Shown piece after piece: positions 2,815 to 15,191 of a DNA stretch of 33,574 nucleotides. A program made the translations under genes and the position numbers. A model generated the notes under the pieces. The model had not been told where the DNA came from and did not search any database. It saw nothing but the letters and a program-made list of their open reading frames with translations. The stretch's first letter is position 1. Each line of letters begins with the position of its first letter. Where the stretch lies: NCBI GenBank assembly GCA_902782535.1, contig CACZNM010000024.1:1-33574 (forward strand), in the 5' to 3' direction. The stretch comes from an uncultured Erysipelotrichaceae bacterium (lineage in GTDB: Bacteria > Bacillota_I > Bacilli_A > RF39 > UBA660).

Positions 2815-3828
2815 CTACTTACTCATTAAATATTTAGCTGTTCTAACCATTTGAGCACTATAACCCATCTCATTATCGTACCATGCAACAACTTTTAATA
2901 ACTGTTTACCATCAACATCTAAAACATTGGTTAATAGTCCATCTACAACTGCTCCATACATCGAACCAATTACATCACTTGATACAATCGGATCTTCCGT
3001 ATACATTATTGTTTCACTTTGATTCTTTTTAAATAATTCATTAACTTCTTCCTTAGTTGTATTACGTTTTAATTCAAGTACTAAATCTATTACTGAACCT
3101 GTTGGTACAGGAACACGCATAGCCGTTCCATCAAGTTTTCCTTTAAGTTCAGGAATAACGGCACCTATAGCAGAAGCTGCACCAGTTGAAGCTGGAACAA
3201 TATTAGCAGCACAAGCACGACCACGACGAGAATACATTCCTTTTTTATGCGCTACATCTAGTGTTGCCTGATCATTCGTATAAGCATGAACTGTTGTCAT
3301 AAAGCCTTTTTCAATACCAATATTCTTATGAATAATATTAAGTACTGGTGCTAAACAATTGGTTGTACAAGAAGCTGCAGATATTACATCCTCACTTCCG
3401 TCTAGAATGTCATGATTAACATTATAAACAATTGTTTTTAATTCTCCTTTAGCTGGTGCAGATATTATAACTTTTTTAGCACCTGCTTCAATATGGGCAT
3501 GGGCTTTATCATAATCAGTAAATAAGCCTGTACATTCCATAACAACATCAATTCCTAATTCTTTCCATGGTAAATCATGAGGATCTTTTTCACTATATAC
3601 CCTTATTTTTTTACCACGAACAATAATATTCTTATCATCATGTTTAATGCTATCTATTTCGTAATTACGATGATTTGTATCGTACTTTAATAAATAAGCA
3701 AGTTGCTCTGCATCGCACAAGTCATTAACTGCTACAACCTCCAATTTAGGATCTTCGTTCATTAAACGAAAAACTAACCTTCCTATTCTTCCAAAACCAT
3801 TAATCGCTACTTTCATATTATTATACAT
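2815..3828 (-). CDS. gap: glyceraldehyde-3-phosphate dehydrogenase (type I)
   Basis: NAD-binding INGFGRIGR and catalytic-Cys motif SCTTNCLAP. The true start may be the fifth codon (MKVAINGFG, nt 3816). Confidence 0.95.
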
Positions 3829-3861
3829 TCCTTTCTTTTTTTATCATATTTTTTCATTATT

Positions 3862-5520
3862 TTAAATATTATAGCATCCACCACCAATAAATTCACGTAA
3901 TATTGAATCAGCTGGAATCGCTTCACTAGGTATTGGTAGGAAAACATCCAATACTTTCATTAATCTAACTGCTTCCGAATAATTAGGGTCATCTGGTTTA
4001 ACTGAATACAACAGTGGCATTACATATGTCTTTAATATGCAATATTCATAAATTAATGCAGTATCAAAAACATAATCTGCTTCATCTTGGTATGGAAAAA
4101 TATACTTCTCTTCCCCCTCTCTTACATCCTTCCATATTTTTAATGTATCAGAAACTGTATAACCACGTGTTCTATTATCTCTAATCATTCTTCTTAATAA
4201 TCGATTATCTGTTAAATATATACGATTATCTCTATCAATATTAACCGCAGTTAATGGTGACAAATAAATCTTATATTTTAATTTTCTATCTACTTCCGCC
4301 AATAATTTTGGATTCAATGCATGTATACCTTCAATAAGTAAAATATCTGTCGGCGCTAGAGTCATTTCTGTTTTAAATTTTTTCTCACCACTATAGAAAT
4401 CAAATGTTGGCATTTTTACCGTTTTACCGTCTAATAAATCTTTAATTGTCTTATTAAATAATTTTAAATCAATAGCTTCTAAACATTCAAAATCATATTC
4501 ACCATTTGCTTTTCTTGGCGTATCAACTCTTTCTTTAAAGAAATTATCCATTGATATCATTTTAGGTGTTAAACCAAAACTATGTAAATATACCGCTAGT
4601 TTAGCACAAGACGTTGTTTTTCCACTACTTGAAGGTCCCGCAATTAAAACAACTCTTATTTTATTATTTGTTTTTCTTATCATTTTTACTTGATCAAGAA
4701 TTCGATTATTCATTAATGTTTCACTTATTCTTATTAAATGGTCCATATAACCCATAGATACTACTTTATTTAAATCACTTGAATTTTCTACATGAATCAA
4801 TTTACCCCATTCCTTGGCTTCTTTAAAGACTTCAAATAATTTTTCATGATGTACATAATCATCCATTTTTCCAGAATAAATAATTGGAAATTGCAAGATA
4901 AATTCTTTTTCATCTAAATATGTAAGTTTAAATTCTTCTAAGCATGACGTTTCACTTGGCATTTTACTAAATATATAGTCATACATATTGCCTATTTTAT
5001 ATAGATGAACATATGTACTTGTCATATATTCTAAAAGATGAACTTTTGACATATCATTATTTTTTCTAAAATACTCAACTGCTTCATTTTTTAATACCGT
5101 AATTTTTGTTATTGGTAAATTAGCTTCAATAACTGCTTCCATCTTCTTAGCAATTGTATTTAATTCTTCTTTAGTAATATTTTTTTCTGTTTCAATACAT
5201 ACTGATTTATCAACTGAATGTTTTACGGTTATCTTATTCTTATTACCATATACTTCATTAAAAGCATAATTTAAAAGCAAAATAAGGCCATTAACATATA
5301 TTCTATTAGCCATTGGACTAGTAACATCCAAAAACTCAATATTATCACCGTCATTTGGAACATGACTTAATTCACAAACTATATCATTTACTAAAGCAAC
5401 TACTGGCAACCTTCCTTTATTTTTTATCATTTTAGATATTTCTAAAAGAGGAGTTCCTTTACTTACTTCTCTTTTTACACCATCAATATTTAGAATTATA
5501 TTCTCTACTAACATACGCAT
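3862..5520 (-). CDS. udk: uridine/nucleoside kinase fused to an N-terminal ThrRS-like TGS region
   Basis: 552 aa. P-loop LIAGPSSSGKTT followed by a PRK/uridine-kinase-like C-terminal half. The N-terminus (ILNIDGVKREVSKGTPLLEIS...VALVNDIVCEL) looks TGS-like. Confidence 0.8.
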   Translation of the reverse strand: MRMLVENIILNIDGVKREVSKGTPLLEISKMIKNKGRLPVVALVNDIVCELSHVPNDGDNIEFLDVTSPMANRIYVNGLILLLNYAFNEVYGNKNKITVKHSVDKSVCIETEKNITKEELNTIAKKMEAVIEANLPITKITVLKNEAVEYFRKNNDMSKVHLLEYMTSTYVHLYKIGNMYDYIFSKMPSETSCLEEFKLTYLDEKEFILQFPIIYSGKMDDYVHHEKLFEVFKEAKEWGKLIHVENSSDLNKVVSMGYMDHLIRISETLMNNRILDQVKMIRKTNNKIRVVLIAGPSSSGKTTSCAKLAVYLHSFGLTPKMISMDNFFKERVDTPRKANGEYDFECLEAIDLKLFNKTIKDLLDGKTVKMPTFDFYSGEKKFKTEMTLAPTDILLIEGIHALNPKLLAEVDRKLKYKIYLSPLTAVNIDRDNRIYLTDNRLLRRMIRDNRTRGYTVSDTLKIWKDVREGEEKYIFPYQDEADYVFDTALIYEYCILKTYVMPLLYSVKPDDPNYSEAVRLMKVLDVFLPIPSEAIPADSILREFIGGGCYNI

Positions 5521-5622
5521 CTTCCTTTTCTATTCTTTATTTAAGTATATCATAGTTTTTTATATTTTAAAACAAATATACATAAAAAAATTCTATTTAC
5601 ATATTTTATTAAAGGTGATTAT

Positions 5623-6192
5623 ATGCATTTAATACCTATTATTATTGATAAAGAAAATAATGGTGAACGTAGTTATGATATTTATTCAAGACTCCTAAAG
5701 GATCGTATTATCTTTTTAACAGGTGAAATTGATGATAATAACGCCAATACTATTGTTAGTGAACTCTTATATTTAGATTCCATTAATCACGATGATATTT
5801 CTCTATATATTAATAGTCCTGGCGGAAGTATAACAAGTGGAATGGCCATTATGGATACCATGAATTATATTAAAAGCAATGTTTCAACAATATGTATTGG
5901 TATGGCTGCAAGTATGGGAGCTTTTCTTTTATCATGTGGACAAAAAGGTAAAAGATTTATCCTTCCAAATGCTGAAGTTATGATTCACCAACCACTAGGT
6001 GGTGCAACAGGACAAGCTACAGAAATTAAAATAGCAGCAGAAAGAATTTTAAAATTAAAAGATCAATTAAATAAAATATTATCCTTTAATACCAATCAAA
6101 ATATAGAAAAGATTAAAAATGATACAGAAAGAGACTATTATCTTAATGCTAAAGAAGCTCTAAATTATGGTATCGTTGATAAAATATTATAA
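5623..6192 (+). CDS. clpP: ATP-dependent Clp protease proteolytic subunit
   Basis: 189 aa with catalytic-Ser context [11 protein letters not shown] and His context [19 protein letters not shown]. Confidence 0.95.
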
Positions 6193-6198
6193 AAAAAA

Positions 6199-6215
6199 AG
6201 ATAAAATATTTATCT
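6199..6215. terminator. hairpin between convergent clpP and the 80-aa gene (bidirectional terminator candidate)
   Basis: AGATAAA-ata-TTTATCT. It is flanked by an A-run on the plus side (a T-run for the minus-strand transcript) and by TCTTCTTC downstream on plus. Confidence 0.45.
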
Positions 6216-6452
6216 TCTTCTATTTAGTGATTCATCATCTAATAAACCATCTAATTCTAAAACATTTCCCCTAAGAGTCTCTTTCTCTTTATTTTCATAA
6301 GCAGCTACATATTCCTTTGAAGTCTTAGAAACATAAATTGCAACCGCTTGTTCCATAGTACGAAGAACATTTGGATCAAAATTTCTACTTAAACTGGGGT
6401 TACCTAAAATTGTTAAATAATTATTCATTCTTACATCAAGATTCTCTTGCAT
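6210..6452 (-). CDS. hypothetical 80-aa protein
   Basis: The track ORF is trimmed to the ATG at 6452 (MQENLDV...), which has AAGGAGG 8 nt upstream. No family recognised. Confidence 0.6.
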   Translation of the reverse strand: MQENLDVRMNNYLTILGNPSLSRNFDPNVLRTMEQAVAIYVSKTSKEYVAAYENKEKETLRGNVLELDGLLDDESLNRRR

Positions 6453-6521
6453 AATTATATCCTCCTTCATTATAGCCAATATATCATATTTACCAAACAT
6501 TGTAAATATATTTACATCTAT

Positions 6522-7055
6522 CTATTTATTAATTATTTCCATATAAATTAAATCAATGTATTTCCCATCACAATATATAGATTCTTGGCGTCTTCCAAAT
6601 TCTCTAAATCCACATTTAGTGTAACAATTAATTGCACGTTGATTATCAGAAAGTACAGTTAACATAACACTATGCAATCTTAATTGATTAAAACCAAAAT
6701 CAAGCAATAGTTTAATCGCTTCACTACCATAACCTTTACTTAAATTATCCTCTTCACCAATAAAGATTCCTAATTCAGCACAACCATTTTTATAATCAAT
6801 TTTATCAAAAGCAATTGAACCTACTAACTCATCATTAGATAGATTTACTATTGCAAAATGTGCATCTTCTTTAGAAGCTTTTTCTAAATATTCTCTTTCT
6901 CCAAAAAGCGATACCATTTGATTATGAACGGATAAAAATCTTGTAATATTTGCATTATTTAACCATTTGGTATATTTTTCGCTATCATTGGGATTAATTG
7001 GTGATAAATATATTGATTCTCCTACTATTTTTTTAAAATATTTCTTTTTTTTCAC
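6522..7055 (-). CDS. GNAT family N-acetyltransferase (RimJ/RimL-like)
   Basis: 177 aa. Acetyl-CoA motif region LSKGYGSEAIKLLLDFGF and N-terminal GESIYLSPINPND typical of RimJ/L-type GNATs. Apparent GTG start overlaps the whiA 3' end by 23 nt. Confidence 0.8.
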   Translation of the reverse strand: MKKKKYFKKIVGESIYLSPINPNDSEKYTKWLNNANITRFLSVHNQMVSLFGEREYLEKASKEDAHFAIVNLSNDELVGSIAFDKIDYKNGCAELGIFIGEEDNLSKGYGSEAIKLLLDFGFNQLRLHSVMLTVLSDNQRAINCYTKCGFREFGRRQESIYCDGKYIDLIYMEIINK

Positions 7056-7980
7056 TCTCTTTTAATCTTTTAGCTATTTCTCTTATTTTTCGAAAACGAT
7101 GATTAAGACCTGATTTGGTAATTGATTTTCCAATTTCCATGGTCATTATTTCACTTAACTCTTGCAAAGAAGTTTCTGGATATCGAAGCCTGTATACACA
7201 AGCTTCTTTTGTTTTTTCATCTAGAAATTCTTCACCTAATTTGTCATAAATTAAATTTATTTCTTCAATTTGCTTATTACAAGTATTAATTGTTTTTTCA
7301 ATATTGGCTTGTTCCATGTTATTAAGCCGATTAGTCATATTTTTATGATCACGATATATTCTGATATCTTCAAAGTACATTACAGCACTAGAAGCTCCTA
7401 TTATTCTTAAAAAATCCCCTATTTTCTCGGCTTCTTTAATATATACCATATATTTCTTATCTTTTAAAATAACCTTACTATTTAAATAATATTCATTCAA
7501 TAAATCGTTAACAAAATTAGCTTCATTTTTTTTATCAATAAAGAATTCTAAATGATATCTACTTGTTTTAGGATCATTAACACTTCCACAAGAAAGAAAA
7601 ATCCCCTTTAAATACGCTCTTCTTTCTTCTTCTGAATCAATTAAATAATCTTCAACCTGTGATAGATAATTACCGTTATCATCAATGACTAATAAATCTT
7701 TTAAAATAAATTTAGTATCGCCTTCTGCTTTAATGACATATAATCGATTACGATTAAAAGTATTTTCTAAATCCCCTATTGTTACCATAATATTATAAAT
7801 ATCAGAAAGTAGAAGATAGACTCTTTTAGCAACTTTAGAATTTTCTGTTGTAACTGTTATTGTATACTCATCATATTTAGCATTATTACGAATTATAGCC
7901 GAAAGCATAGCGATATTTTCATTTCTTTCTCCATCATAGCTTGCTACTTCATTTTTTACATTACTTGTAAATGATATCAT
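7033..7980 (-). CDS. whiA: DNA-binding protein WhiA
   Basis: 315 aa. LAGLIDADG-like core (YLKGIFLSCGSVNDP) and C-terminal HTH (ITKSGLNHRFRKIREIA). Confidence 0.9.
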   Translation of the reverse strand: MISFTSNVKNEVASYDGERNENIAMLSAIIRNNAKYDEYTITVTTENSKVAKRVYLLLSDIYNIMVTIGDLENTFNRNRLYVIKAEGDTKFILKDLLVIDDNGNYLSQVEDYLIDSEEERRAYLKGIFLSCGSVNDPKTSRYHLEFFIDKKNEANFVNDLLNEYYLNSKVILKDKKYMVYIKEAEKIGDFLRIIGASSAVMYFEDIRIYRDHKNMTNRLNNMEQANIEKTINTCNKQIEEINLIYDKLGEEFLDEKTKEACVYRLRYPETSLQELSEIMTMEIGKSITKSGLNHRFRKIREIAKRLKESEKKEIF

Positions 7981-7982
7981 AA

Positions 7983-8762
7983 TTAAACCTCATTATACAT
8001 ATTTCTATTTCGACTTGTAATAATCAAAATAATACCTATAATAATCATTGGTATTCCTATTAATTGTGCCATTTTAATACTACCTACCATCAAACTATCT
8101 GTACGCAAACTTTCAATAAAGAATCTTACTATACCATACCAAATTAAATATATACCCGTAATAACACCAAATTTAATTTTCCTATTACGTCTTAAAATTA
8201 TTAAAGTAATAAAGCATATTAAATTTAACAATGATTCATAAAGAAAGGTTGGATGATAATATACACCACTAATATTCATACCCTCAATAATAAAGTTTGG
8301 TAAATGTAATTTTTCTAAAAAAGTTCTTGTAACTATTCCACCATGAGCCTCACTATTAAAGAAATTCCCCCATCTACCAATTATTTGACCAATTAATAAA
8401 GCTGGGGCACAAATATCTAATATTTCAATAAATTGCCATTTATTTTTTTTGCAATAAATTAGTATCGCTAATACCGCCCCAATAATTCCACCATGAATAG
8501 CAAGACCACCATTCCATACTTCAAGTATTTCAATAGGATCTTGTAAATAATAATCTAAATTAAATAAGACATAATAAATTCTTGCACCTAAGAAACCACA
8601 TAGTATTGCTAAAAAAGCCATATTTTCAAACTTTGTAGTATCCATTTTTTTACGTTTTATTTCAATATAGGCAACAATAATTCCTAATAAAACACCTAAA
8701 AACATTGTAATAGAATACCAATATATTTTAATAAATCCTAATTCAAATGCTACTCTATTCAT
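7983..8762 (-). CDS. lgt: prolipoprotein diacylglyceryl transferase
   Basis: 259-aa polytopic membrane protein with GGLAIHGGIIGAVL and GRWGNFFNSEAHG motifs. RBS AAGGAGG. Confidence 0.9.
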   Translation of the reverse strand: MNRVAFELGFIKIYWYSITMFLGVLLGIIVAYIEIKRKKMDTTKFENMAFLAILCGFLGARIYYVLFNLDYYLQDPIEILEVWNGGLAIHGGIIGAVLAILIYCKKNKWQFIEILDICAPALLIGQIIGRWGNFFNSEAHGGIVTRTFLEKLHLPNFIIEGMNISGVYYHPTFLYESLLNLICFITLIILRRNRKIKFGVITGIYLIWYGIVRFFIESLRTDSLMVGSIKMAQLIGIPMIIIGIILIITSRNRNMYNEV

Positions 8763-8877: not shown

Positions 8878-10350
8878 TTATTTGCTATCATTTTGTCGCA
8901 TTAATGGGAATAAGACAACATCACGAATAGAAGGTACATCATAAATCAACATTAAAAGTCTATCTATGCCAAAACCAAGACCAGAAATTGGTGGCATACC
9001 TTGTTCCATCGCTCCCATAAAGCTTTCATCAATTTCCATTGTCTCATCGTCACCTTGTTCTTTTGCAATCAACTGATCTTCAAATGCACGCCTTTGAACA
9101 ATAGGATCAACAAGCTCAGAATAAGCCTTACATAATTCTGTACCTCCTGCTACTACTTGGAATACATCAATAATACGATTATCTTTATCATTACGACGAG
9201 CAAGAGGGATTAATAAAGCTGGATAATTATATATAACTGTTGGTTCAATAATACCGGCTCTAATAGTTTTCTTATATACAAAATCAATTATTTGACTTAA
9301 AGAATGATAGTCTTCTAAATCTTTCATTGTAAATAATCCTTTTGCAACTATTTTTTCCTTTAATTCATTAGGATTATCAATCGCAAGAAAATCAAAACCA
9401 AGAATCTTTCTTAATCTTTCTACATAATTAATTCTTGTAAAATCTTTACCAAAGTCAAGGGTATTACCTTGATAATTAATTGTCGTAGTACCAATAAGTT
9501 CCATCATTAAATTACGAATAAAATCTTGATAGAATTTTAAATTATCTTCAAAATTCCAATAGGCAGCATACCATTCTACTTGAGTAAATTCTTGTAAATG
9601 CTCTGTATCCATACCTTCATTTCTAAAACATTTAGCAAGTTCATATACACGATGAAATCCCGCTGATATACATTGTTTCAAGTATGTTTCTGGAGCAATA
9701 CGAAGATTAAGATCAATATCAAGGGCATTATGATGTGTATAAAATGGTCTGGCAGCCGCTCCACATACAGCACTTTGTAAAATAGGCGTTTCAACTTCTA
9801 AAAATTCATTTTCTCCTAAATATTTATGAATAAAGGAATATAATTTACTTCTTCCTAAAAAGACTTTTCGAGATTCTTCATTAGAGATTAAATCAACATA
9901 TCTTTCACGATATCTATCTTCTACATCTGTTAGACCATGAAACTTCTCTGGAAGAGGTCTTAAAGCTTTACCTAAAAAGACAAAATCATCAGCACGTAGT
10001 GTTTTCTCTCCCGTTTGAGTAGTAAACATTTCTCCTTCTACACCAATAAAATCACCTACATCAATCATTGATTTAAAGAAAGCATATTTCTCTTCCCCTA
10101 CCAAATCTATCTTAATAGATACCTGTAAACTTCCCTCTAAGTCACGTATTCTAAGAAATGATAATTTTCCCATTTTACGCATAAAGATAATTCTTCCTGC
10201 AACTCTAACATTTTTTTCTCCATCATTTAAATTACATGCATCATGTAAACGATGAGTAATTTCAAATCTTTCTGGATAAGGATTACATACTTTTCTTATT
10301 TCTTCAACCTTATTTCTTCTTACAATTTCTTGTTCTGATAATTCTCTCAT
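8878..10350 (-). CDS. lysS: lysine--tRNA ligase (class II)
   Basis: Motifs CFRNEG and GLGFGIDRLLM. Trimmed to MRELSEQEIV (ATG 10350), because the track extension runs through the upstream RDD gene. The RDD stop and lysS ATG are 1 nt apart. Confidence 0.95.
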   Translation of the reverse strand: MRELSEQEIVRRNKVEEIRKVCNPYPERFEITHRLHDACNLNDGEKNVRVAGRIIFMRKMGKLSFLRIRDLEGSLQVSIKIDLVGEEKYAFFKSMIDVGDFIGVEGEMFTTQTGEKTLRADDFVFLGKALRPLPEKFHGLTDVEDRYRERYVDLISNEESRKVFLGRSKLYSFIHKYLGENEFLEVETPILQSAVCGAAARPFYTHHNALDIDLNLRIAPETYLKQCISAGFHRVYELAKCFRNEGMDTEHLQEFTQVEWYAAYWNFEDNLKFYQDFIRNLMMELIGTTTINYQGNTLDFGKDFTRINYVERLRKILGFDFLAIDNPNELKEKIVAKGLFTMKDLEDYHSLSQIIDFVYKKTIRAGIIEPTVIYNYPALLIPLARRNDKDNRIIDVFQVVAGGTELCKAYSELVDPIVQRRAFEDQLIAKEQGDDETMEIDESFMGAMEQGMPPISGLGFGIDRLLMLIYDVPSIRDVVLFPLMRQNDSK

Positions 10351-10351
10351 T

Positions 10352-11053
10352 TTATTTACCTTCTTTCTTTTTTGTACCCTTTTTCTTTTCACCAACAATT
10401 TCTGCGTCTTTAATCTGTTCATTAGGATCATCTTTTTGATAATTAATATTAACAACTTTCGTATTTGCTATCAAATCATGTAAACCACGACCATCATTTC
10501 GATACATAACAAAGATTAATGAAACAATAAAAATTAACGATAAAACTCCACTAGCTTTCGGTTCAATATCAATATAATTAGTTTTTGATAGAGAATAAAA
10601 CAAAATTATTATTATAGCATTACTTAAAACACTATTAATTATCAAACTTCTTAAAAGATAATTAAAGATATTTAATTCTTTATCATTATTACTTATCATT
10701 CTTATTTTCATTAAATATTTACCAAGGGTTATTCCGTGACAAAAATATGGCATTATTACATAATAAACAATTATTACTATTAAGGTTACTATCGTAATGT
10801 AAATACTGCTTGCAACCAATTCATAATTTAGTTCGCGACTTTTCGCTTGATATTCTTCTAATTCAATTTCTTTTTGACTATATTTAGACATTGTTTCTAA
10901 CATCTCTTTTGATACTTCTTCATATTTTTTAGTATCAGTAAATGTTGAAGAAATTATCCCTGCTAGTAAAGATACAATCAATATATCAATAAAAAACGCT
11001 GCTACTCTTTTATATACTTTAGGTTTTTCAACAATTAATACTTCATTATTCAT
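10352..11053 (-). CDS. RDD family membrane protein with Lys-rich C-terminal tail
   Basis: N-terminal R..AAFFIDILIV and C-terminal GRGLHDLIANTKVV are the RDD signature residues, with 3-4 TM segments. Start set to MNNEVL (ATG 11053) with GAGGAGG 6 nt upstream. The tail is EKKKGTKKKEGK. Confidence 0.75.
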   Translation of the reverse strand: MNNEVLIVEKPKVYKRVAAFFIDILIVSLLAGIISSTFTDTKKYEEVSKEMLETMSKYSQKEIELEEYQAKSRELNYELVASSIYITIVTLIVIIVYYVIMPYFCHGITLGKYLMKIRMISNNDKELNIFNYLLRSLIINSVLSNAIIIILFYSLSKTNYIDIEPKASGVLSLIFIVSLIFVMYRNDGRGLHDLIANTKVVNINYQKDDPNEQIKDAEIVGEKKKGTKKKEGK

Positions 11054-12054: not shown

Positions 12055-12091
12055 AAAAAGATAAAAGAAAAGAGTTAAATTAATAACTCTT
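12055..12091 (-). terminator. rho-independent terminator after the LysM lipoprotein gene
   Basis: AAGAGTTA-6 nt-TAACTCTT (12070-12091, overlapping the stop) is followed on the minus strand by TTCTTTTATCTTTTTTT. Confidence 0.6.
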
Positions 12092-12542
12092 ATTTTGCCT
12101 TATAATTGTAAATTATTTGATCTACTTCAATTAAATCAATGTTTTTAATGCCATTGTATTTAGCTAACGTATAGCAATTAACATGCCATGTTCTAGCAAT
12201 TAAACTTAATGTGTCACCCCATACTACTTTGTAACTCTTTGCACCAACTTTGGAATTAATTCTAGTGTTTTCTTTCCATTCAACACCATTCCTCTTTAAA
12301 AGTTTAACTTTTTTTGTAGTACTTGAACCATTATTTTTGCTATCATTTTTCTTTGAATCATCCTTAGAATTTTCTTTACCGTTGTCATCCTTCTTATCAG
12401 TACCACCTTTATCATCCTTATCAATTACATCTGGTGTATTACCTTTATCTTCAGGATCATCTTTACCACATCCAGCGGCAACAAGTAAAGTAAAGACTAA
12501 GAGAAAACATAAGAAAAATGTGCTTAATTTGTTAGATTTCAT
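12090..12542 (-). CDS. LysM-domain lipoprotein
   Basis: Trimmed to MKSNKLSTFFLCFLLVFTLLVAAGC (lipobox LVAAGC), with RBS AGGGGGA. D/K/N-rich low-complexity linker, then C-terminal LysM (YKVVWGDTLSLIARTWHVNCYTLAKYNGI). Confidence 0.85.
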   Translation of the reverse strand: MKSNKLSTFFLCFLLVFTLLVAAGCGKDDPEDKGNTPDVIDKDDKGGTDKKDDNGKENSKDDSKKNDSKNNGSSTTKKVKLLKRNGVEWKENTRINSKVGAKSYKVVWGDTLSLIARTWHVNCYTLAKYNGIKNIDLIEVDQIIYNYKAK

Positions 12543-12627
12543 AATGTTCCCCCTACCTTTCCTATCTCTACAATGTAATTGTATCATAGCATCAAAAGTA
12601 AAAGAGAATATTTGACACATTATGACA

Positions 12628-14316
12628 TTATTTTTTCAATGTTTTATTATTCTCTTCATCATCATCAAAAGATTGTCTAATTTTTTCTGTTGCCTCTTCT
12701 TTATCTAACAGATTATTATAATAATCCCTTGTAATTTTATTACATTTTTTTAAATGGAAGTAAATTAAATCTTTTTCATCTTCACTACAGTCAGACATTT
12801 CATATATTTTAGATAAAAAGTATTCTATTTTCTCTTCATCATCTATAAAATATCTATTATTTTGATCAAAACAATATATTCCCCATGGTAATTCATTCTG
12901 ATTATCAAAGCTTCCATTTGTAACTAATCTCCATAAGATACCACTTTCTGTGAAAGAAAACTCACTATATTGATTACTATAAATACCACTTCTTATACAC
13001 ATCGGATAACTTATTAAATGATTATGACATATTTTATCATGATATTCTTTGGCAACATCCTCCAAATTATTCCACGTAATAATTTCTCGCCAATATGATG
13101 AAGATTTATCATTATATTCACTTTCAAAATCGTTTTTCCAATCAAAAAATTCAAACGCAGTATTATAAGAACCTACCCATCTTGAATGAACAAAAGAATT
13201 TCGTAACTTGTTTCTTGGATATTCCTTTTTTCCTATAGTAATTTTTTCATCATTTACAACTGTATCAAAAATATATCCACAATAAATAAAACAACTTATT
13301 TGTGAAAATAAATCCCAATCATATACTGCACAAAGTTTATTGGGAATTGTTCCAAATTCATTGGTCACATTTTCAAACAAAATATTTTTTTCATCAAATA
13401 ATAACATCATTTGGACTTCTTGTTCAAAATCGCTCATACTTTTATTCTTATTTAATATCAAATACTGTCCTACAAAATATAACATTGTTTCATAATTAAA
13501 TCTTTTTAATTCTGGTAAAGGCATAGCAGTCATTACTAAATATGGTAAAATAGCTCTTCCATTAGCCAGTAATTTTTCCCAACCTTTTAAATCCTGTTGA
13601 ATCTTTCTTTTTTGCGAATATGTTAGAGAAAAAGTTTTAATAACGTCAGGATCAGTAGGATTATCTTTTGGATAAACTTTTTTCATCTCAACATTATCCA
13701 ATAGTGCAAAGCAATTTTTACTATTTAAAGAAGATAAATCCTTTTTTATATCTAAAACATAATGATTTAAATCTTGAACCGTCAAAGCTTTAGACATTAA
13801 CTCATAAAAATCTGCACAAGATATTAAAACATGAAATGGTCTAGGATCTGTATATATTGCTTTTTCTTTTTTAGTTCTAGAATCCGCTATGTCAATTTCA
13901 ATATATATTTTATTATTAATTCTCTTTAATTGATATTGTTCTTTATTATCGCTATGGTTTATAACATTTCTTATATATCTTATAACCCACTTTTTATCAG
14001 GAAACATACTAGCATCATTAGGATTAACAAATATATTTTTATTAATATCAATATTCTCTGGTAAAACGCTTTTAAAATTGGCATCATATAAAATAGAGTT
14101 TATCGACTTCATTAAATAGAAACCAAATACTTCAATCATTTCCATATAATAATATTGTGAAGCATACATGTATCGATTAGTAGAACGCATGTATCCTACA
14201 AAATTAATCCAAAAAGAGACATCTTTATTAAGACATACTGTCGACATTAAATATGAAAAATCATATAAATAATTCGCAATATCCTCCTTGGTTAAAGTAT
14301 ACTCATTTTTATCCAT
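12628..14316 (-). CDS. hypothetical protein with two RNxxxH (HEPN-type) motifs; candidate tandem-HEPN RNase
   Basis: 562-aa uninterrupted ORF with a G-rich RBS. RNVINH is at aa 116-121 (nt 13954-13971) and RNSFVH at aa 372-377 (nt 13186-13203). The ORF itself is secure. The HEPN assignment rests on motifs only. Confidence 0.55.
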   Translation of the reverse strand: MDKNEYTLTKEDIANYLYDFSYLMSTVCLNKDVSFWINFVGYMRSTNRYMYASQYYYMEMIEVFGFYLMKSINSILYDANFKSVLPENIDINKNIFVNPNDASMFPDKKWVIRYIRNVINHSDNKEQYQLKRINNKIYIEIDIADSRTKKEKAIYTDPRPFHVLISCADFYELMSKALTVQDLNHYVLDIKKDLSSLNSKNCFALLDNVEMKKVYPKDNPTDPDVIKTFSLTYSQKRKIQQDLKGWEKLLANGRAILPYLVMTAMPLPELKRFNYETMLYFVGQYLILNKNKSMSDFEQEVQMMLLFDEKNILFENVTNEFGTIPNKLCAVYDWDLFSQISCFIYCGYIFDTVVNDEKITIGKKEYPRNKLRNSFVHSRWVGSYNTAFEFFDWKNDFESEYNDKSSSYWREIITWNNLEDVAKEYHDKICHNHLISYPMCIRSGIYSNQYSEFSFTESGILWRLVTNGSFDNQNELPWGIYCFDQNNRYFIDDEEKIEYFLSKIYEMSDCSEDEKDLIYFHLKKCNKITRDYYNNLLDKEEATEKIRQSFDDDEENNKTLKK

Positions 14317-14340
14317 AATCCCCCCAAATTAATGAAGTAT

Positions 14341-14369
14341 ATTATACCATAAAAATTAAAAAATTGCAA
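14341..14369 (-). promoter_or_regulatory. near-consensus sigma-A promoter of the 562-aa gene
   Basis: Minus strand reads TTGCAA (14364-14369), a 17-nt spacer, then TGgTATAAT (extended -10, with TATAAT at 14341-14346), about 25 nt upstream of the ATG. Confidence 0.6.
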
Positions 14370-14393
14370 AATAAAAGCCTACATTGTAGACTT
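14370..14393 (-). terminator. terminator after the 229-aa gene
   Basis: Imperfect hairpin AAGTCTAC-aat-GTAGGCTT on the minus strand, followed by TTATTTTG. It lies 13 nt after the stop at 14406. Confidence 0.45.
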
Positions 14394-14405
14394 CTTTTTA
14401 ATAAA

Positions 14406-15092
14406 CTATCGTATTTTTTTATTCGTATATCCTTCTAATTCTTGATAATCATTACTAAGTGATTCACGATATTTATCTCTTACAATTAATCCAATTGTTT
14501 TAAGCCAATTATAATATGTCTTATTATAAATAGAATTGGCTTTTATAAAATATTCATTATCATCAATAGCAAGCGTTACAATATCCTTTTTCTGATTTAA
14601 TATACTAACTCTTTCTGTATGATAATCTGGAATAAATTGAGACAAACTATATTTAATGTTGCCTTCTCCATCTACTATATCAGTATATATATCAACATTA
14701 TACGTACTATCCAAATAATTTCTATTACTTTGTCTTACTATAATATAATCTCTACCATTCTTATAACATACTGCATATTCATAACTATTATCCTCTTTAT
14801 TCTCTTTCCATTCTATATTAAATCCATTAAGACTGTTATTAAATATTTTTACCTGATTATCTGAAAGATTAATTTTAAAATACTCTTCTCTCATCGATTT
14901 TGCAAAGACACTATTATTTTCTATTCCTTTGCCATCATTAGGTATTATAATTTTTAATCCAGATAATTCCTCTACTCCACTATTAATAATATCAGAAAAT
15001 ACTCCTAAAACAATTGCTGATCTTGCTGAATCAAGCTTAATTTTTCCATCATGTACTAAATTTATAATTTGATTTACAATATCATATTTCAT
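14406..15092 (-). CDS. hypothetical cytoplasmic protein (229 aa)
   Basis: Start moved to MKYDIV (ATG 15092) because GGAGG sits 8 nt upstream. The track's first ATG overlaps that RBS. No TM segment, signal peptide or recognisable motif. Confidence 0.75.
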   Translation of the reverse strand: MKYDIVNQIINLVHDGKIKLDSARSAIVLGVFSDIINSGVEELSGLKIIIPNDGKGIENNSVFAKSMREEYFKINLSDNQVKIFNNSLNGFNIEWKENKEDNSYEYAVCYKNGRDYIIVRQSNRNYLDSTYNVDIYTDIVDGEGNIKYSLSQFIPDYHTERVSILNQKKDIVTLAIDDNEYFIKANSIYNKTYYNWLKTIGLIVRDKYRESLSNDYQELEGYTNKKIR

Positions 15093-15161
15093 ATACAAAA
15101 CCTCCATTTAATTAGATTATCTAAATATCCTTCGTTTTACAAGTATATTTTCATTATTTGA

Positions 15162-15191
15162 CAAAAAAAGAGCCTATTTATTAAGCTCTTT
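15162..15191 (-). terminator. terminator after ftsH
   Basis: AAAGAGC-11 nt-GCTCTTT spans the ftsH stop and is followed by TTTTGTC on the minus strand. Confidence 0.5.

Follow-up and report, generated by a model that had tools for sequence, protein, structure and literature searches.

A contig of 33,574 nucleotides from an uncultured Erysipelotrichaceae bacterium (CACZNM010000024.1), referred to here in its whole length as the window, carries on its minus strand an open reading frame (ORF) of 562 codons at 12628-14316. Its product, the 562-amino-acid protein P0001, contains the R-N-x-x-x-H signature of HEPN ribonucleases (RNases) twice, and we consider that it is best filed as a probable HEPN-type RNase in which one chain carries both motifs, an architecture otherwise known from Cas13, with membership of the HEPN fold as a candidate assignment. 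The twin motifs had been pointed out in an initial annotation made from the letters of the sequence, and the codons quoted there were found in place: AGA AAT GTT ATA AAC CAT at 13971-13954, encoding R116-N-V-I-N-H121, and CGA AAT TCT TTT GTT CAT at 13203-13186, encoding R372-N-S-F-V-H377. The gene and its two motifs are located as follows.

12628-14316, minus strand: gene for P0001 (ORF and translation), which belongs to an undescribed family marked by two R-[ND]-x3-H motifs
13954-13971, minus strand: motif 1, R116-N-V-I-N-H121 (family consensus I-R-N-A-F-N-H-N-D)
13177-13203, minus strand: motif 2 with its extension, R372-N-S-F-V-H377-S-R379-W380 (consensus [KRH]-[IL]-R-[ND]-[SA]-[FL]-V-H-G-R-W)

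The two motifs lie 256 residues apart and are the only matches to Rx4H in the protein. Shuffling of the protein's own residues, repeated 20,000 times, produced at least one RNxxxH with a frequency of 0.025 and at least two with a frequency of 0.0005; a scan of stop-free frames of at least 100 amino acids in all six frames of the whole window gave no second stretch with two RNxxxH. Conservation of the motifs across relatives is a stronger test than this chance level.

Searches of Pfam, NCBIfam, PADLOC and PHROGs with the 562-amino-acid protein gave no significant match to a known family, in agreement with the initial annotation, which had recognised none. A word-index search identified only three relatives (43-64% identity) and, when carried out with an alignment of 79 sequences, only four close relatives and nothing beyond. 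An exhaustive search with a hidden Markov model (HMM) over 1.84 billion cluster representatives (clusters at 50% identity) identified 115 proteins at E <= 0.001, of which 72 reached E <= 1e-10; they are mostly of 430-600 amino acids and cover profile positions ~4-430. Pfam and PADLOC searches with 79 relatives returned nothing consistent, no Pfam model of any kind matching more than one of them at E <= 0.1. Cluster look-ups showed the family clusters to be tiny and drawn from metagenome assemblies, the only names in them being of the type 'hypothetical protein [Bacilli bacterium]' (for example, MBR2678049.1 and MBQ4263075.1), and all members whose source was traced came from metagenome assemblies or from metagenome-assembled genomes (MAGs) of uncultured gut or rumen Bacilli. 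A pattern scan of the GTDB species representatives revealed 18 loci, all in uncultured gut or rumen MAGs, with titles that were nearly all Bacilli or Erysipelotrichaceae and in one case 'Candidatus Scatovivens'. To judge from its FtsH protein, the window itself comes from this group of organisms too. Searches of the literature on multi-HEPN proteins and on AbiF found no published description of the family. P0001 thus belongs to a previously undescribed family of proteins of ~430-600 amino acids, which has no entry in Pfam, NCBIfam, PADLOC or PHROGs and of which all occurrences so far are in uncultured low-GC Bacilli of gut and rumen.

One relative, P0004, is stored in the database as a 333-amino-acid C-terminal 'half' because the two independent assemblies of this homolog both break in mid-gene (locus L003 at 7847-7856, locus L004 at about 7772-7880). 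The break in L003 is a run of N marking a scaffold gap, and that in L004 is a chimeric junction at which a higher-GC, foreign-looking segment creates a false stop; the N-terminal half is present in the locus and carries RNAINH.

Conservation was assessed in an alignment of 79 full-length members with a mean column identity of 18% and an identity to the query of ~20%. At this depth only seven columns are conserved in at least 90% of the sequences, namely D78, R116, H121, Q235, R372, H377 and D392; four of these are the arginines and histidines of the two motifs, and the codons of the other three are located as follows.

14083-14085, minus strand: codon of D78, a near-invariant acidic residue (D in 74 and E in 4 of the 79 members) in the predicted long helix before motif 1
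13612-13614, minus strand: codon of Q235, near-invariant (74/79), at the start of the C-terminal lobe
13141-13143, minus strand: codon of D392 (78/79), at the predicted end of the beta-hairpin after motif 2

R116 is kept in 77 members and H121, R372 and H377 in 78 each, and the position after the arginine is N or D in 76 members at motif 1 (N in 68, D in 8) and in all 79 at motif 2 (N in 66, D in 13). Beyond the second motif, position 379 is R in 71 members and K in 5, and W380 is kept in 64. Nearly every member thus has a first motif of the form R[ND]A[FLIV][NCSA]H near position 115 and a second of the form [KRH][IL]R[ND][SA][FL][VAT]HxRW near positions 375-420, so that the R, N/D and H residues of both RNxxxH motifs, whose conservation in homologs had been proposed as a check, proved near-invariant. 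The 535-amino-acid protein P0034, which retains the overall alignment, lacks R116, H121, R372, H377, D392 and Q235 jointly and is possibly an inactivated paralog or pseudo-enzyme. Because all these residues were lost together, this one case suggests that the two motifs serve a single function.

An AlphaFold2 model built from the 79-sequence alignment (m57be9cd3c30b) has a predicted local distance difference test score (pLDDT) of 89.0 and a predicted template modelling score of 0.91 and forms one compact body; a model based on just four sequences reached a pLDDT of only 61.6 and was of no use for a fold search with Foldseek. On the basis of this model and of conservation, the protein can be divided into three parts.

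13777-14316, minus strand: N-terminal lobe, residues 1-180
13012-13620, minus strand: C-terminal lobe, residues 233-435
12631-13011, minus strand: variable C-terminal extension, residues 436-562, predicted to form five strands and then four helices

The N-terminal lobe is predicted to contain helices 10-29, 35-45, 54-83 (carrying D78) and 108-120, the last of which has motif 1 as its last turn, with H121 opening a loop, and to continue with a beta-hairpin (128-143), a strand (161-166) and a helix (167-178). The predicted C-terminal lobe consists of helices between 233 and 353, a hairpin (358-367) and helix 368-376, at the end of which lies motif 2, with H377 again opening a loop, followed by a beta-hairpin (380-392), a strand (409-414) and a helix (415-430). 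The order of elements after the motif is common to both lobes: hairpin, loop of ~16 residues, strand, helix. The C-terminal extension is lacking in members of 430-490 amino acids and in P0003.

The HEPN superfamily is recognised by a conserved Rx4-6H, usually with a polar residue (N, D or H) after the arginine, and the alignment of 79 members contains such a motif twice per chain. In the description of these domains (PMC3710099) the Rx4-6H stands where a helix passes into a loop, helix-2 is the place of the conserved acidic residue in those domains that possess one, and Csx1 provides a precedent for a beta-hairpin straight after the motif. Both motifs of P0001 are placed in this way, as judged by predicted secondary structure only, and D78, in the long helix preceding motif 1, is a candidate equivalent of the helix-2 acidic residue; acidic candidates in the C-terminal lobe are D351 (33/79) and D356 (D in 49 and E in 12 members), at or just past the end of the predicted helix 334-353. 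Since the motif ends a helix and an acidic residue lies in the preceding helix, in accordance with PMC3710099, the modelled local anatomy fits an HEPN active-site element, twice over. The internal duplication that had been suggested for the protein is matched by the repeated topology of the two lobes and not by their sequences, as an hhalign comparison of the N half with the C half aligned only eight motif columns; an ancient duplication is thus suggested by topology alone.

The promoter that had been noted for the gene was identified again and, together with other predicted expression signals, occupies the interval between the gene and the ORF upstream of it, designated ORF233.

14341-14369, minus strand: promoter, with a -35 element TTGCAA (14369-14364), a 17-nucleotide spacer, an upstream TG (14349-14348) and a -10 element TATAAT (14346-14341)
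14320-14325, minus strand: Shine-Dalgarno-like GGGGGG, 3 nucleotides upstream of the ATG (14316-14314), with the same G-run in L001 and L003
14367-14400, minus strand: terminator-like hairpin and T-run after the upstream ORF233 (fold z = -2.5)

The sequence TGnTATAAT was found within 70 nucleotides upstream of 13 of 25 family genes, compared with 54 of 314 ORFs outside the family (Fisher p = 1.8e-4); the 25 loci are not fully independent of one another, as some are related. The gene is predicted to be transcribed from this sigma-A-type extended -10 promoter of its own, the terminator-like hairpin apparently separating it and ORF233 into two transcription units.

Genomic context was compared across 26 loci from many lineages, comprising the window and 25 others. 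Clustering of the neighbouring genes revealed no partner gene recurring across lineages, synteny being confined to close relatives. The three relatives from the word-index search, on contigs from rumen and gut metagenomes, are syntenic, with the gene between ftsH and a gene for a LysM protein, followed by dusB, a gene for an RDD protein and lysS. In line with the initial annotation, which had found neither a CRISPR array nor a cas gene in the window, no CRISPR-like repeats or arrays were detected in the window or in the 25 other loci, and the PADLOC Cas models matched neither P0001 nor the 79 relatives. Sequences from eight sources contained no Rfam family at gathering score, the AbiF-associated RF03085 included, and none around the gene at a relaxed E <= 5. 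The intergenic gaps are mostly of 44-170 nucleotides upstream and 7-130 nucleotides downstream, and non-syntenic flanks share only short matches of 14-26 nucleotides, which upstream lie mostly at the promoter; no conserved flanking element or RNA was found across the loci.

The gene is accessory, being present or absent at one site among sister genomes and situated at other sites in other lineages. In L012, L013 and L014, whose FtsH proteins are 94%, 92% and 84% identical to that of the window, the LysM gene follows directly on ftsH and there is no family gene, whereas the equally related L001 and L003 (FtsH 93% and 91%) carry the gene at the ftsH-LysM site. No family member lay near ftsH among 80 GTDB relatives retrieved via FtsH, and peptide patterns invariant in the four close homologs were absent from every GTDB representative genome. 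On a 752-kb contig of a goat-colon MAG (JAFQSD010000002.1; loci L103 and L066) a family gene lies ~330 kb from ftsH, which shows that the family occupies different chromosomal sites in different lineages. Close homologs are 41-45% identical, compared with 91-93% for FtsH, 88-89% for LysS, 79-81% for DusB, 65-68% for TilS and 48-50% for the RDD protein, making the gene one of the two most diverged in its neighbourhood. Base composition gave no evidence of a recent transfer, as the G+C content at third codon positions (GC3) is 0.17 and that of the neighbouring genes 0.13-0.21.

These data bear on the explanation that the protein is a lineage-specific housekeeping RNase, engaged in the processing or turnover of ribosomal, transfer or messenger RNA in reduced-genome Bacilli, and not a conflict or defence effector. 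There is a parallel in Las1, an HEPN enzyme of eukaryotic ribosomal RNA maturation, and such a function would suit a gene that stands among translation and housekeeping genes and is co-directional with them, has a constitutive-looking promoter and no inhibitor gene, resembles its neighbours in composition and has no member found on phages or plasmids. It is harder to reconcile with the absence of the gene at the same site in L012-L014 and of any close homolog in the GTDB representatives, with the unrelated loci in different lineages, with an identity of 41-45% against 79-93% for FtsH, LysS and DusB and 48-50% for the RDD protein, with a member, P0034, that lacks the conserved R, H, Q and D residues, and with the tiny cluster sizes. 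A housekeeping role is considered unlikely.

The ftsH-LysM interval (window 12546-15173) is a variable spot in related genomes and not specifically a defence island. Directly upstream of the gene, ORF233 (14406-15107, minus strand) encodes a 233-amino-acid orphan with its own terminator-like hairpin, for which Pfam, NCBIfam and PADLOC gave no match and PHROGs none of significance; because it is lacking in the otherwise syntenic L001, L003 and L012-L014, it represents a second accessory insertion at this site. The interval is empty (~100 nucleotides) in L012-L014. By eye, its content was assigned as a 460-amino-acid multi-pass membrane protein in L029, a membrane glycosyltransferase-like protein of ~500 amino acids in L016, L022, L028 and L035, three cell-envelope genes in L024 and two paralogous 345-amino-acid orphans in L072, and genes for O-antigen-ligase-like proteins or membrane glycosyltransferases occupy it in other relatives. 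In L001 a Fic-domain gene lies between the LysM gene and dusB. Two of the ORFs listed for the window, at 12090-12620 and 8878-10455 (both minus strand), probably have their starts placed too far upstream: the LysM protein most likely begins with MKSNKLSTFF at about 12545, as in homologs of 142-146 amino acids, and LysS with MRELSEQEIV at about 10350 and not at the TTG at 10455, which overlaps the RDD gene. A plus-strand ORF at 12250-12615, inside the LysM gene, looks spurious.

To our knowledge, all characterised HEPN RNases need two Rx4-6H motifs to be joined, either by homodimerisation or within the Cas13 chain. The reading that we favour, and to which we give roughly even chances, is that P0001 and its relatives are stand-alone, single-chain, pseudo-dimeric HEPN-like RNases with two catalytic elements. 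Each of the two lobes of the chain would supply one R-[N/D]-x-x-x-H at the C-terminal end of a helix, and by analogy with HEPN dimers and Cas13 the lobes would most likely pack as an intramolecular pseudo-dimer, forming a single composite site that would cleave RNA independently of metal ions. Catalysis would fall to the pairs R116/H121 and R372/H377, with N117/N373, D78, D392 and R379/W380 as putative supporting residues. Because the gene has its own promoter and no partner gene, toxicity would have to be restrained within the protein, perhaps by the beta inserts after the motifs or the variable C-terminal extension, or limited by a narrow choice of substrate. As to its role, the presence/absence variation and the divergence of the gene favour a conflict- or stress-triggered RNase over a housekeeping one, and the protein may be, for example, a stand-alone effector of the abortive-infection type.

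A number of results weigh against this interpretation. Foldseek searches of PDB and BFVD with the pLDDT-89 model yielded nothing at E <= 0.001 (best E-values 1.1 and 0.26, respectively), and no HEPN protein was among the 50 top PDB matches listed, although PDB contains structures of Cas13, Csm6 and AbiF (8VZ6). A four-helix up-down bundle similar to solved HEPN domains was thus not found by Foldseek, and of the two HEPN-like domains proposed in the initial annotation it is the local anatomy of the motifs that is supported, the fold being a candidate assignment. None of the HEPN models of Pfam matched any of the 79 sequences, and the only similarity seen between profiles of the family and of established HEPN families was a match of the C-terminal lobe to HEPN2 of the compact Cas13an effectors, for which hhalign gave a probability of 75% that fell to 0.1% when 13 motif columns were deleted. 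Most neighbours of family genes are ordinary metabolic or housekeeping genes, including tilS/ftsH/dusB/lysS, uvrA/uvrB, thyX, asnS and genes for PP2C, SDR, GNAT, NUDIX/NrtR and response regulator proteins, and do not form defence islands. Members were not found on phages or plasmids by tblastn against INPHARED and PLSDB, nor on IMG/VR contigs in two scans. An RNase expressed constitutively without an inhibitor gene would also be difficult to explain if it did not restrain itself. The gene neighbourhoods lend no backing to the defence or abortive-infection role proposed at the outset, while the patchy presence and fast divergence of the family are compatible with it.

Conflict genes were seen next to two distant members and are the exception, most other loci being without any: in L005 mazE and pemK/mazF (602-1176) lie immediately upstream of the family gene, and L007 carries a ResIII helicase and an N6_N4 methylase, forming a type III restriction-modification pair, together with an rve transposase within 7 kb (2953-8189). 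Two WXG100 genes, encoding substrates of ESX/type VII secretion, are situated ~7 kb upstream in L009 and L010 (394-1042), probably by coincidence.

Further searches for a fold assignment were made at the level of sequence profiles. None of the 25 Pfam families listed for the 79 members is an HEPN family, and a 'faint' precomputed match of P0133 to PF18736 (pEK499_p136 HEPN) was not reproduced on re-running. Searches of PDB sequences with whole-family profiles and with a profile of the C-terminal lobe returned nothing significant, the non-significant matches being a GCN4 chimera, smu.1604c and the winged-helix region of Brr2. The last of these was the best PDB match of the C-lobe profile (E = 0.087), with an alignment spanning the motif and the following hairpin, and it points to a non-enzymatic explanation in which two winged-helix-like units bind RNA or DNA via the conserved R, N and H residues and the protein acts as a regulator or sensor. 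The helix followed by a beta-hairpin 'wing' that AlphaFold2 predicts at both motifs is consistent with such units, as is the failure of Foldseek to detect a nuclease fold in PDB or BFVD. However, the match to Brr2 is not significant, and Foldseek, given a confident model, listed no winged helix although PDB contains a great many of them. The near-invariant R, N/D and H together with acidic residues, at ~20% identity, are moreover the pattern of a catalytic site, and the neighbouring genes are unrelated, with no conserved target operon. We regard this explanation as quite improbable. Another possible assignment is a helix-plus-sheet RNase fold of the barnase/RelE-like (BECR) kind. A PD-(D/E)xK nuclease was considered and dropped, as the conserved aspartates are not followed by a (D/E)xK motif.

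The closest architectural counterparts of the family are the Cas13an effectors, which have 429-577 amino acids and two HEPN motifs (Yoon et al. 2024, PMC12165695). The argument that P0001 falls below the size of the smallest Cas13 proteins was thus wrong, being outdated by these sizes. Cas13an proteins resemble the family in being single chains (429-577 amino acids compared with 430-600), in having two R-[NH]-x3-H motifs at similar positions and an HEPN2 motif, IRNxxAHGGW, similar to the extended motif 2, and in lacking a large REC lobe. They differ from it in that the family has no CRISPR array in 26 loci, has a beta-hairpin, strand and helix after each motif and is confined in host range to uncultured Bacilli. 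When a Cas13an profile was built from nine sequences (Table S3 of PMC12165695), hhalign aligned it with the whole family over only 23 columns around motif 2, with a probability of 34%. The family HMM scored ~0 bits on the nine Cas13an sequences, and likewise on two bacterial double-HEPN proteins not linked to CRISPR that Yoon et al. list and that are unrelated to the family. Homology to Cas13an was rejected, since the 75% signal of the C-terminal lobe, for which 30 column-shuffled controls gave at most 5%, rests on the motif columns and vanishes without them; the profile comparison with Cas13 that had been proposed as a check thus yielded similarity of the motif only, and the resemblance is one of architecture and motif ([IL]RNxxxHG[GR]W) and not of demonstrable homology.

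A fusion of two AbiD/F-type HEPN domains has been proposed as the origin of Cas13 (PMC12165695; PMC12737573), and AbiF-type HEPN toxins are neutralised by a cis-encoded non-coding RNA (ncRNA), their fused forms being the proposed Cas13 ancestors (PMC12737573). It could be supposed on this basis that the family consists of HEPN proteins partnered by RNA, either Cas13- or Cas13an-like effectors with a guide encoded elsewhere or AbiF-like type III toxins with a small RNA, and the size of 430-600 amino acids, the motif positions of ~115 and ~375-420, which mirror those of Cas13an, and the context of motif 2, which resembles Cas13an HEPN2, are all compatible with this. The lack of CRISPR-like repeats in the window and the 25 other loci, the lack of any Rfam match, RF03085 included, in the eight sources and near the gene at E <= 5, the short gaps and the sharing of only 14-26-nucleotide matches by non-syntenic flanks, and the score of ~0 bits on Cas13an all argue against it, and we consider a partner RNA of either kind very improbable.

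Other HEPN systems share single features with the family. AbiD/AbiF proteins (Pfam Abi_2) have the RNxxxH-type signature, and AbiF is a single-HEPN homodimer with a cis ncRNA (Rfam RF03085), whereas the family has two motifs per chain and, unlike AbiF, neither an ncRNA, an Abi_2 match nor a fold match, 8VZ6 included. Csx1-type HEPN proteins have a beta-hairpin after the motif, as predicted for both lobes here (PMC3710099); Csx1/Csm6 proteins, however, combine one HEPN domain with a CARF sensor, dimerise and are linked to CRISPR, and the family has no CARF domain and no Pfam or fold match. Two HEPN-type motifs per chain outside CRISPR also occur in the Swt1-type 'dyad of HEPN domains' and in DUF4209 proteins of eukaryotes (PMC3710099); these eukaryotic proteins are partly inactive, are joined to PIN or other domains and have no detectable sequence relation to the family. 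HepT proteins (DUF86) have, as does the family with its Rx4HxR[WYF], an aromatic residue two to three residues past the Rx4H. The HepT motif is Rx4HxY. HepT is a dimeric protein of ~130 amino acids and always paired with an MNT antitoxin gene, whereas the family has no partner gene and no DUF86 match; no nucleotidyltransferase antitoxin gene was found among the sampled neighbours, which carry unrelated Pfam domains.

Single-chain enzymes with twin HEPN motifs are rare outside CRISPR, and their origin is a current question. The present family combines the size and motif layout of the smallest Cas13 proteins with the lack of a CRISPR array, of a partner gene or RNA and of a detectable fold relative, and its interest lies in its bearing on the emergence of HEPN-HEPN fusions and on their control in the absence of a guide RNA. 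Should RNase activity not be confirmed, the family would stand as a warning example, its twin motif being strongly conserved in a fold beyond current libraries. If the activity is confirmed, it would mean that neither a guide nor an antitoxin is needed for the evolution and regulation of an intramolecular HEPN pseudo-dimer, would add a compact RNase scaffold of 430-600 amino acids and would give a function to a 'dark' family of uncultured gut and rumen Bacilli. A tentative and, in our estimate, rather doubtful extension is that the family arose by an independent HEPN-like two-lobe fusion of Cas13an size that has no array, guide or antitoxin and restrains itself, its hairpins and C-terminal domain sensing a trigger such as a phage component, with a fold beyond the reach of structure searches. 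If this were so, the family would offer a new and very compact RNase scaffold and would represent a second, CRISPR-independent outcome of the kind of HEPN-HEPN fusion that is thought to have yielded Cas13.

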